This document shows, piece after piece, positions 1 to 59,136 of a stretch of 64,000 bases of DNA (positions within the stretch are counted from its first letter, which is position 1; each line of letters opens with the position of its first letter). Below the pieces are notes generated by a model. The model ran no database searches and had not been told where the DNA came from. It worked only from the letters and a program-made list of their open reading frames with translations. The position numbers and the translations under genes are program-made. The stretch is from contig NW_024704751.1 in NCBI RefSeq assembly GCF_018977255.1, forward strand, positions 8,618,001-8,682,000, in the 5' to 3' direction. Origin of the DNA: Callorhinchus milii (taxonomy: Eukaryota).

Positions 1-40
1 ATTGGACATTATTGCAGAGATAACAGAATACGAAGCTTCT
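1..40 (+). CDS. Uncharacterised EF-hand protein, partial internal exon (5' end outside window): LDIIAEITEYEAS
   Basis: Open frame from nt 2 ends at consensus donor TCT|GTAAGT (41). Phase 0 matches the next exon. Confidence 0.75.
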
Positions 41-139
41 GTAAGTCACACATCATCGCTCTTCCCAACCAGAACGGTCCCAAATCCCGGCCCATGACTA
101 TGTTGCGCACGAGTGGATCTCTGACTTTGCACGATCATG

Positions 140-486
140 GAGTCCCGTGTAGCTCAGTGGTTAGAGCACTCGCCTCGCAAGCGAGAGGTCCTGGGTTCGA
201 TTCCCGGGCGGGGCAAACCCTTTGGCAAGTTTCCTTACTCTGCACGCCTGTCTACCAGCAGTAAGTAGGAACGCGGTTGTTAGTGGATCACTTTTTGGGG
301 GGGTTATGATCCCTCAAGAAATAATTACCACTGTTTGTGGGACGCTGCTGTGCGCAATTGGCTGCCCCGTTTAACCCACAAAATACACAGTCAATCCACT
401 TTACAATACATTCTGTGAAGCGCTTTAAGACGTCTCACCAATGTGATAAGGCACTATATCAACTGCAAGGCTTATTATTCTTCTTC
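140..486 (+). mobile_element. tRNA(Ala)-headed SINE with Deu-domain-like core and L2-like 3' tail (long variant)
   Basis: A box TAGCTCAGTGG, B box GGTTCGATTCC, core GTGGGACGCTGCTGTGCGCAATTGGCTGCC, tail GAAGCGCTTT...TATATCAA..GCAAGG(TTA)n. Many copies occur in the window. Confidence 0.9.
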
Positions 487-498
487 AACTGTTTTCAG

Positions 499-589
499 AG
501 GGTGAGAATGCCAACGGTGCCCACCCGCCTGGCTCTCTCGAGGCAGATCAGCCGTTTCCAGCTGCCCATGGACATCAAGACACTGGAGA
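499..589 (+). CDS. Uncharacterised EF-hand protein exon: [30 protein letters not shown]
   Basis: Acceptor ttcttcaactgttttcag|, donor GA|GTAGGT; 91 nt, phase 0->1, frame-consistent with both neighbours. Confidence 0.85.
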
Positions 590-749
590 GTAGGTGCTCG
601 CCCAGTCAGCTCGCTGCAGCTCAGAACAAACACCAGCAAACACATGGTCCAAGGTGTCAGTCGGAGCCAGCACCTCCACGGTGTTTGACCTGCACTCTGC
701 TCCGTGCTCGTCATCAGTCCCTGGGGCCAGAGAGCTGAGAATTGCGTCA

Positions 750-870
750 ACCTGGCTCAGTCGGTAACACTCTCTCTCGCCTCTGAGTCAGAAGTTTGTG
801 GGTTCAAGGGCCCACGTCGGGACTTGGAATCACATATTCTAAGCTGACACTCCAATGCAGTGCTGCGGGT
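750..870 (+). mobile_element. 5' fragment of an older DeuSINE-like element (SacSINE1-like head)
   Basis: CCTGGCTCAGTCGGTAACACTCT..GCCTCTGAGTCAGAAG..GGGTTCAAG...GCTGACACTCCA; homologous to copies at about 56910 and 61590. Confidence 0.6.
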
Positions 871-1024
871 GGGGGTTTGCATTGATATCTATCTATCGAT
901 AACATATCGATGCAGAGAATGAGAATGTGTTCCATTCCTTGGCCTCGACTCTTCACGTTGGAACTGCACAGATCAATAGGAAACTGCAAAAAACATTCTT
1001 AAATCTTTTCTGTCTGTGTGCCAG

Positions 1025-1143
1025 CTCTGTCACCTCAGGACTACCTGATGAAATACTGCATTGTCTGCAAGAGACGGCAAGTTCACTACAAGAAATCGTT
1101 TGACAAGTTTGACAAGGACAGAGACGGAATTCTCTCGTTCCAG
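1025..1143 (+). CDS. Uncharacterised EF-hand protein exon: (T)LSPQDYLMKYCIVCKRRQVHYKKSFDKFDKDRDGILSFQ
   Basis: Acceptor tcttttctgtctgtgtgccag|, donor CAG|GTACTG; 119 nt, phase 1->0. Encodes the EF-hand loop DKDRDGILSFQ, completed by E from the next exon. Confidence 0.88.
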
Positions 1144-1754
1144 GTACTGTAGCAGTAACGAGTATTTGAATCCTTCTGACAGTGATAGAACCAAACAACG
1201 TCTAGTCCGTAAGCTTTGGCTTAAAGACGCTGCGTCAACACACAGAACATGAGTTTTAATGCTGTTGACCTAAACGCCTAAGGGAGTTTTTAAGGAGGAT
1301 TTGAGGATAGGGCAAAAAGCAGTAACTCCATTGTTGAAACTGTCATTTGCTGACAAATAGTCACTACACTTGACATGATGTTGGAAATGTTCCAGAGAAC
1401 TATGGGGTGAAGGTTGACGATGGTGGAGCAAAGAAAAAAAGACCTCAATAAAAAGAGGATTTCTCCCAGAGCCAAAGCCAACAGTCCTTCAACCAAGTTG
1501 GTCATTCGTCTCCTGGTTTTGTGTGGGATCTCACTATGTTGAAGCTGCCTGTCTTTTGCTGACAAATATTGCAGTCACAACACTTGACAGCAGTTATCGA
1601 TGGAAGCATTTAGACATTTTTTCCGGGTGTAATAATCACTCCATTGTCCCCATTTTACCGGACAATCCCGAGCCCTTTCGGGGGAAGTCAGTCTCCGCCA
1701 CTGGATTGGAAGCTCACACTCTAACTCTAATGCTATCTACCCCACCCCCCCCAG

Positions 1755-1918
1755 GAGATGGAGAAGGCACTGATCGACGTTTACTTCAACACCATCACCT
1801 CCCGGGACGTCAGGCGAGTGACGGAGCTCCTGCTCGCCGACGAGAGCACAAGATTCACTCACAAACTCTTCATCCCGCTCTGTGCTCTCTCCGAGCGCCT
1901 CCTCTACACAATGTTTGA
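1755..1918 (+). CDS. Uncharacterised EF-hand protein exon: EMEKALIDVYFNTITSRDVRRVTELLLADESTRFTHKLFIPLCALSERLLYTMF
   Basis: Branch-like CTAAC at 1721, C-rich tract and CAG| acceptor, donor GA|GTAAGT; 164 nt, phase 0->2, no stops. Confidence 0.88.
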
Positions 1919-2366
1919 GTAAGTTTAAAGCACATCCTATTCTGTCCCTAAAATCTTACAGCTAAGCTTCACCCCAACAGCTGTCAGCAAACACTGTAAT
2001 ACACTTGGACCACTGTGACCGAAGGTGCGATCAAGGAAGGTCTTGTAGGAGGCAAGGGAGGGATTATGAGATTGGAGTTCCAGAGGCTGGGGGCAGAAAG
2101 GCTGAAAGCCCAACCGCTGATAGTGGGGCGAATAACAAATGGGCGCGAGCGAATAAGCAAACCCCTGAGATACCTACCTTTATTCTGGGAAGAATCCCCA
2201 AGAAAGGGAAAGCACAGGGCATTGAAACTGTGAAATTCTTACCGCCTGGAGTGGGAGCAAGTCATTCACTCATCTCTGGAGTGATAGAAAAGCATTACAG
2301 CGAAGAATCTATGAAAAAGATAATTAAACTACACGTATGATCTGGGGAATGTGCTTCCTCCCCCAG

Positions 2367-2499
2367 GCCCGAGGACAGGGAAGACAATGAGTACAGGGAG
2401 AAGCCCACGGTGGAAGAGGCTGACGTGTGGGGCTTGAACTGGAAATTTCAAGGCTGCGAAATCAGTGATGATGTAAAGAGACTGATCTCCGTGCTTTAG
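2367..2499 (+). CDS. Uncharacterised EF-hand protein terminal coding exon: (E)PEDREDNEYREKPTVEEADVWGLNWKFQGCEISDDVKRLISVL*
   Basis: Acceptor tgcttcctccccccag-type pyrimidine tract ending at 2366; phase 2 matches; stop TAG at 2497-2499. Confidence 0.85.
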
Positions 2500-3267: not shown

Positions 3268-3284
3268 TTTATTTTAAGTTTAAT
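3268..3284 (-). terminator. Probable distal poly(A) signals of YWHAE (ATTAAA 3284-3279, AATAAA 3273-3268)
   Basis: Tandem hexamers about 1 kb after the stop, followed on the minus strand by U/GU-rich sequence (tctgttttgctgtt). Confidence 0.7.
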
Positions 3285-4262: not shown

Positions 4263-4312
4263 TCACTGATTTTCATCCTCAACGTCCTGCAGCTCTTTAG
4301 TCTGCTCTTCAC
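4263..4312 (-). CDS. YWHAE: 14-3-3 epsilon exon 6: (G)EEQTKELQDVEDENQ*
   Basis: Acceptor ttttcttcctgcacag|; C-terminus matches vertebrate 14-3-3 epsilon (one residue shorter than human); TGA at 4265-4263. Confidence 0.96.

Positions 4313-46037: not shown

Positions 46038-46259
<222 letters not shown>

Positions 46260-58035: not shown

Positions 58036-59136
<1,101 letters not shown>

Follow-up and report, generated by a model that had tools for sequence, protein, structure and literature searches.

Structure and transcription of the gene

Which gene lies at the start of this region, and what might its product do? The window, a stretch of 64,000 nucleotides from Callorhinchus milii, opens with five segments that a preliminary description had joined into a hidden five-exon gene for an uncharacterised EF-hand protein. 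Coordinates without a prefix refer to the window, and those prefixed L002 to sequence upstream of it. The coordinates of the five segments were right, with four GT donors and four AG acceptors, and we reproduced the intron phases 0,1,0,2 and the spliced frame of 181 codons, which is followed by a stop; the other two frames contain 8 and 9 stops. The 54-residue exon at 1755-1916, used as a query, was 100% identical to RefSeq XP_007894697.1 (LOC103180571, Callorhinchus milii, 254 amino acids, "uncharacterized protein"), and residues 74-254 of this protein are, letter for letter, the spliced 181-residue peptide. The gene is thus not hidden, being annotated in RefSeq, and it has seven coding exons and six introns. 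Segment 1-40 is the end of exon 3; the beginning of that exon, and the whole of exons 1 and 2, precede the window by up to 1.46 kb. The borders of exons 1-3 are those of the sole combination giving the P0001 start, among the AG/GT combinations tried near the tblastn matches. The gene is laid out as follows.

L002:8543-8601, plus strand: coding exon 1, encoding with exon 2 the K/R-rich, low-confidence N-terminus
L002:9283-9400, plus strand: coding exon 2, encoding the remainder of that N-terminus
1-40, plus strand: 3′ half of coding exon 3 (81 nt in all, starting at L002:9960, 41 bases before the window)
499-589, plus strand: coding exon 4, residues 87-116, with the R-F-x-L-P-x-D motif that opens the family domain
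1025-1143, plus strand: coding exon 5, residues 117-156, with the helix that leads into EF1 and loop positions 1-11 of that hand (about 1111-1143)
1755-1918, plus strand: coding exon 6, residues 157-210, with the last residue of the EF1 loop, E12 (1755-1757), the degenerate loop of EF2 (about 1836-1871) and the A-L-x-E-R motif
2367-2499, plus strand: coding exon 7, to the stop, with an acidic linker, the E-x-A-D-F motif (D-V in this protein) and a final pair of helices
2583-2588, plus strand: possible variant polyadenylation signal AATATA, inferred from sequence

On the plus strand after the gene, no AATAAA or ATTAAA was found before 4088. When the catshark protein was compared with the window by tblastn, four of the five segments were matched separately, with E values from 2e-5 to 1.5e-21. 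These separate matches, together with the letter-for-letter identity to RefSeq, indicate that the gene model does not arise by chance. The four introns within the window are supported by RefSeq annotation and by homology, and it is nearly certain that LOC103180571 is a real and conserved gene.

No run recorded as RNA was listed for the stretch. Four sequencing runs whose kind is a guess (X1-X4; X3 taken to be RNA) were compared with L002:9150-10000. Run X3 yielded a 488-base contig placed on L002:9282-9402. This interval is exon 2 extended by one letter at its start and two at its end, letters that the adjoining exons have in common with the splice sites. In the intron that follows, the repeat-free part (L002:9411-9613) was uncovered. 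The contig ends at the predicted splice edges, which fits a spliced transcript, the exon 2-3 joint itself not being listed. Exon 2 was uncovered in runs X1, X2 and X4, and the depth peaks correspond to repeats. The sturgeon orthologue is represented by six Logan contig proteins of 247-252 amino acids on contigs of at most 1.1-1.9 kb, a size that fits a spliced mRNA in this relative.

An EF-hand pair within a conserved domain

The AF2 model, made with 74 sequences, had an overall pLDDT of 79, rising above 90 in residues 101-210. It predicts one confidently modelled domain, consisting of an EF-hand pair and flanking extra conserved elements; the domain common to the family spans residues 92-254, about 165 amino acids. 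The first 55 or so residues, which are basic, were modelled poorly, with a pLDDT of about 50, and the first 45 include 20 lysines and arginines in the shark protein and 14-20 across five vertebrate orthologues.

The loop of the first hand (EF1) occupies residues 146-157, between helices 132-145 and 155-165. We tested it for D1, D/N3, D/N/S5, G6, a hydrophobic residue at position 8, and E12, and it has this canonical 12-residue pattern. It is assembled across an exon junction, as had been proposed, with just E12 coming from the next exon. The second hand (EF2), previously called probably degenerate, is indeed so: it is a helix-loop-helix in the model (172-210), with a loop that lacks D1, G6 and E12. 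The two hands are paired, since profile and fold matches span both. EF1 was the only stretch detected by Pfam EF-hand_1, at 25.2 bits against a cut-off of 25.4 (E 1e-5), and no model in the Pfam copy searched covers the family domain of about 165 amino acids. A Pfam scan of 52 members found EF-hand families in six and no family whatever in 44.

Conservation was counted, and a quick tree built, on 105 domain rows, 100 of them different; from an initial 175 proteins, 55 were left out for failing to span the domain and 15 for redundancy. Three residues (P109, R204 and E227) are invariant across the 105 rows, and R105 (95%), F106, L115, Y123, F195, E203 (91%), D230 (97%) and F231 (96%) are 90-97% conserved. 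In contrast to the 90-100% of these flanking residues, D1, D3, D5, G6 and E12 of the EF1 loop are 30-44% conserved. The loop is canonical-like in 26 of the 105 rows. Of 28 named vertebrate orthologues, 22 have a canonical loop, the test being failed by catshark, bamboo shark, sardine, lungfish and both Xenopus species, the last two through a missing E12. Canonical EF1 loops also occur in three of four paralogues and in amphioxus-like and coral rows, and the EF2 loop is canonical in none of 36 rows, most of which have F at position 12. In the alignment the calcium loop varies more than any other part of the domain, and conservation is concentrated in the motifs on either side of the hands. The earlier emphasis on the loop was thus misplaced, though the call of one canonical and one degenerate hand was right. 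The shark protein is likely a calcium sensor.

Many invertebrate members carry the domain at the end of a protein of 500-1000 residues, and in some of them it is preceded by a K run resembling the vertebrate basic stretch.

Comparison with known EF-hand proteins

Structure prediction, which the preliminary description had recommended, gave an EF-hand pair whose best fold match was troponin C (Z 8.4, rmsd 2.4, 84 aligned, 17% identity). The family profile matched calmodulin over positions 134-200 with an E value of about 3e-9. By its loop and its fold the protein is a member of the EF-hand superfamily, and it has in common with a lobe of calmodulin, troponin C, centrin or CaBP1 the helix-loop-helix pair. 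Unlike calmodulin, troponin C and centrin, which have four EF-hands in two lobes, it has one pair, the second loop of which is degenerate. A further difference from a calmodulin-type lobe is that about 35 conserved residues before the pair and 45 after it lie outside those matches. We rejected membership of the calmodulin, troponin C and centrin group because there is one Pfam stretch and one modelled pair, and the matches extend over a single lobe.

Penta-EF-hand proteins (sorcin, ALG-2, the calpain domain) and EH domains, which have a pocket for NPF peptides, also combine an EF pair with further packed helices, as here. Fold matches to sorcin (Z 6.4, rmsd 3.3, 98 aligned) and to EH domains (Z 6.5-6.8, rmsd 3.6-4.3; 90 aligned at Z 6.8, rmsd 4.3) reach the C-terminus, but their Z scores are middling and equal to those of unrelated EF proteins. 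Sequence matches to ALG-2 covered the EF pair alone, and no PEF or EH Pfam family was found at E<=1. Penta-EF-hand proteins have five units after a Gly/Pro-rich N-terminus; here the N-terminus is K/R-rich and one pair is recognisable, and this assignment was also rejected. Two further candidates, DUF5580 (PF17743) and EF-hand_11 (PF08976), were Atlas leads with a score of 0.89, and were absent at E<=1 in P0001 and P0002 and at E<=0.001 in the 52 members. Foldseek gave no match against the PDB at E<=0.001, and VIA-align gave EF-pair matches only, a result that does not demonstrate a new fold.

What was known, then, is a gene in RefSeq and a place in the EF-hand superfamily; what is new is the domain around the hands, which is uncatalogued in the Pfam copy searched. 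Uncharacterised EF-hand proteins are common and the gene was already in RefSeq, so the value of the locus lies in the family: a compact, well-modelled domain, present from sponges to frogs, with no Pfam model of its own and with solved relatives that go no further than the generic EF pair.

Distribution of the family

The preliminary description had suggested an old family lost in some lineages. A search with the full protein returned 11 clusters, from sharks, skate, bichir, sturgeon, Xenopus tropicalis (LOC100485552), amphioxus and one teleost, and the orthologue-like proteins of sharks, skate, bichir, sturgeon and Xenopus were 43-55% identical to the query. Neither the C. milii record nor those of orthologues such as LOC100485552 bears a functional name. 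For 12 database identifiers of family members, no paper was found in a full-text search of main texts, largely from outside the subscription journals; the label "uncharacterised" was thus apt.

A profile search of 1.84 billion representatives gave 744 matches at E<=0.001 and 202 at E<=1e-10, and among the best 150 matches listed were a few multi-EF-hand proteins that are not family members. Of twenty representatives sampled, 15 had a species name. The vertebrates and amphioxus among them were bowfin (two), two frogs, sardine, zebra shark and amphioxus, and the other invertebrates included Paragonimus, Tribolium, Cloeon, Fasciola, Seison, Priapulus, Taenia, the sponge Sycon and Elysia. No non-animal member was found among those named. 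Homology thus defines an unnamed, animal-wide family that extends from sponge to frogs, and this part of the earlier suggestion stands.

The loss is less firmly established. A word-indexed profile search led by frog sequences returned 32 clusters, 30 of them named, from chondrichthyans, bichir, gar, bowfin, two teleosts, lungfish, frogs of many genera and the coral Dendronephthya, and none of the 30 named clusters was from an amniote. The same search missed three proteins that its query had included (skate, sturgeon and Centroberyx), and no coelacanth, salamander or zebrafish was among its results. Since known members were missed, amniote loss is likely rather than shown, and the family has probably been lost in reptiles, birds and mammals. 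Among the named matches of the family searches there was no named mammalian gene, and of 48 partial representative matches a Pelobates protein was alone in lying nearest a frog. P0198, from Pelobates cultripes, is labelled "FK506-binding 5-like", apparently an automatic mislabel, as this protein aligns as an ordinary member.

A paralogue lies about 2 Mb away on the same contig.

G000:C10:6580457-6584869 (in L008), minus strand: paralogue P0094, 237 amino acids

Three intron positions within the domain match between P0094 and LOC103180571. P0094 has a canonical EF1 loop and a less basic N-terminus (9 K+R). In the quick tree it falls in a second vertebrate clade (support 100), which includes zebra shark and bowfin proteins; the frog proteins lie apart from this clade and join those of chondrichthyans and holosteans (SH-aLRT 94). 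The position of the paralogue on the same contig, together with two bowfin genes that are apparently on one contig, points to an old local duplication.

Possible functions of the protein

A lead to the cell type came from the frog. In the accessible tables of PMC6158741, X. tropicalis LOC100485552-like has a log2FC of 1.95 in animal caps over whole embryos, and of 7.7 (stage 10 versus 16) and 8.9 (stage 10 versus 24), a rise of approximately 200- to 500-fold as the larval skin differentiates. Sheet "Briggs 2" of Supplementary Table 4 in the same source, which contains markers taken second-hand from the single-cell study of Briggs and colleagues, places the gene under "alpha ionocyte", 49th of about 80 rows. 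This list includes slc4a1, dmrt2, ca7, atp6v1b1 and atp6v0c, but housekeeping genes too. Table 4 also includes lists for other cell types and for core multiciliated-cell genes, and in it the gene appears once, under alpha ionocyte (PMC6158741). In 17 supplement files of PMC5245798, the gene number was present in a chromatin table only, and not in the Foxi1/ionocyte or ciliated-cell tables; it was not found in the supplements of PMC10081853 or in five supplement files of PMC12768278, and naming or truncated files may be the explanation. The literature searched yielded no uncharacterized EF-hand protein in gill ionocytes. The weak point of the ionocyte link is that it comes from a single second-hand list of about 80 genes that include housekeeping genes.

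Our tentative best explanation is a calcium-tuned adaptor in the proton-secreting (alpha-type) ionocytes of skin and gill. The cell type is taken from the one frog marker list, and we infer ion binding, a partner, a tether and the link with life in water. The near-invariant motifs around the hands would form a fixed fold or a partner surface; EF1, where intact, would bind one Ca2+ or Mg2+ and merely tune the interaction with the partner; and the basic, disordered N-terminus may tether the protein to acidic membrane or cytoskeleton. The gene could have become dispensable after amniotes abandoned ion exchange with water through skin and gill. Ion exchange with water cannot be the sole setting, because the family is also present in land insects, flatworm parasites and sponges. 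Amniotes retain alpha-intercalated cells and airway ionocytes, so that amniote loss does not follow neatly either. A stronger version appears unlikely to us: a dedicated regulator of proton-secreting ionocytes, built on a Pfam-less animal-wide domain, duplicated in early jawed vertebrates and lost outright as amniotes left the water. Should the ionocyte lead be true, the gene would become a new candidate for the regulation of acid secretion among vertebrates living in water, and would mark a gene loss that accompanied the transition to land; should it be false, the domain would still merit cataloguing.

A similar apparent vertebrate distribution is known for Ag1, Ras-dva and SOD4, which according to the accessible part of PMC10416458 are kept in anamniotes, lost in amniotes and tied to regeneration, in contrast to the ionocyte lead here. 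The terms "EF-hand" and "ywhae" do not occur in the main text of that source as accessible.

The protein may instead be a calcium-independent scaffold, in which the EF pair is a structural core and a conserved partner is bound through the invariant motifs at any ion level. This is compatible with an ionocyte location, and the pattern of conservation is in its favour: canonical-like EF1 loops are in the minority across the family, position 12 of EF2 is mostly F, the 100% conserved residues are all outside the loops, the proteins of Xenopus, lungfish, sardine and two sharks lack a canonical loop, and Pfam recognises EF-hands in few members. We nevertheless consider it somewhat unlikely, since the canonical EF1 of the shark protein, of most vertebrate orthologues and paralogues, and of amphioxus-like and coral rows suggests selection on ion binding in those lineages.

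An accessory protein of motile cilia or sperm flagella, with its basic tail on microtubules, would fit a family range spanning ciliated animal phyla, from sponge onward. Axonemal EF-hand chains are among the fold matches, but these are generic EF pairs with Z under 8.2. The frog gene switches on at neurula, and in supplement file 3 of PMC10147948 it falls in cilia-defective SUV4-20H morphants (log2FC -1.8, padj 4e-4); 2,246 genes, however, fall in these morphants. The sole placing of the gene under alpha ionocyte in Table 4 of PMC6158741 also counts against a ciliary role, as does its absence, subject to naming, from the multiciliated-cell tables of PMC5245798 that were available. Amniotes, moreover, retain motile cilia, and the named members include none from outside the animals. 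On balance a ciliary function seems quite unlikely.

More doubtful still is a nuclear EF-hand regulator, whose K/R run would be a nuclear localisation signal and which would act on transcription in a differentiated epithelial cell. The K/R content of the N-terminus in five vertebrate orthologues, and the comparable K run ahead of the domain in some invertebrate members, are as expected for such a signal, but basic tails also bind lipids and microtubules, the N-terminus of the paralogue is less basic, and no DNA-binding family was found at E<=1. Finally, an annotation-only or decaying gene without function is virtually refuted: RefSeq XP models are predictions and exon 2 was covered by one of four runs, but the frame is intact, identity across jawed vertebrates is 43-55%, introns are common to the paralogue, and expression in the frog is regulated in the accessible tables of PMC6158741.

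Genomic neighbourhood

The gene lies tail-to-tail with YWHAE, as had been proposed.

4263-29569, minus strand: coding span of YWHAE (14-3-3 epsilon), a neighbour with no functional link implied
142-215, plus strand: tRNA-Ala(CGC)-like sequence, intronic and non-coding, scored as tRNA by Rfam and ARAGORN

The stop of YWHAE, near 4263, is about 1.8 kb from that of LOC103180571. Polyadenylation signals were seen on the minus strand at 3273, 2965 and 2708, and the 3′ UTRs of the two genes may approach each other or overlap. We take the neighbour to be YWHAE from 14-3-3 motifs and from the preliminary description. Likewise by motifs, we take a gene at about 46-59 kb of the window to be CRK-like, and two on the plus strand 58-84 kb upstream to be INPP5K-like and PITPNA-like. 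In the CRK-like gene, SH2, SH3 and the motifs after them are packed into about 700 bases on the minus strand (58290-59000), and a further exon lies near 46,100.

The apparent gene order, from L011-L014 and window positions 4263-59000, is PITPNA-like (+), INPP5K-like (+), LOC103180571 (+), YWHAE (-), CRK (-). The human order is YWHAE-CRK-MYO1C-INPP5K-PITPNA on one strand, and this difference suggests that the block has been rearranged. No myosin-I gene was found nearby, Myosin_TH1 having no match on the contig; FYVE_2 had one match, 1.5 Mb away. A Pfam scan of 122 upstream reading frames gave no family above the cut-off. A low-complexity repeat without a Pfam family, at L004:6048-8489 on the minus strand, is open in three minus frames (538-814 codons). 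The sequence that follows the tRNA-like element at 142-215 resembles pieces of the upstream-intron repeats that have very high contig depth, and because of this adjoining repeat-like sequence the element is probably the head of a tRNA-derived SINE.
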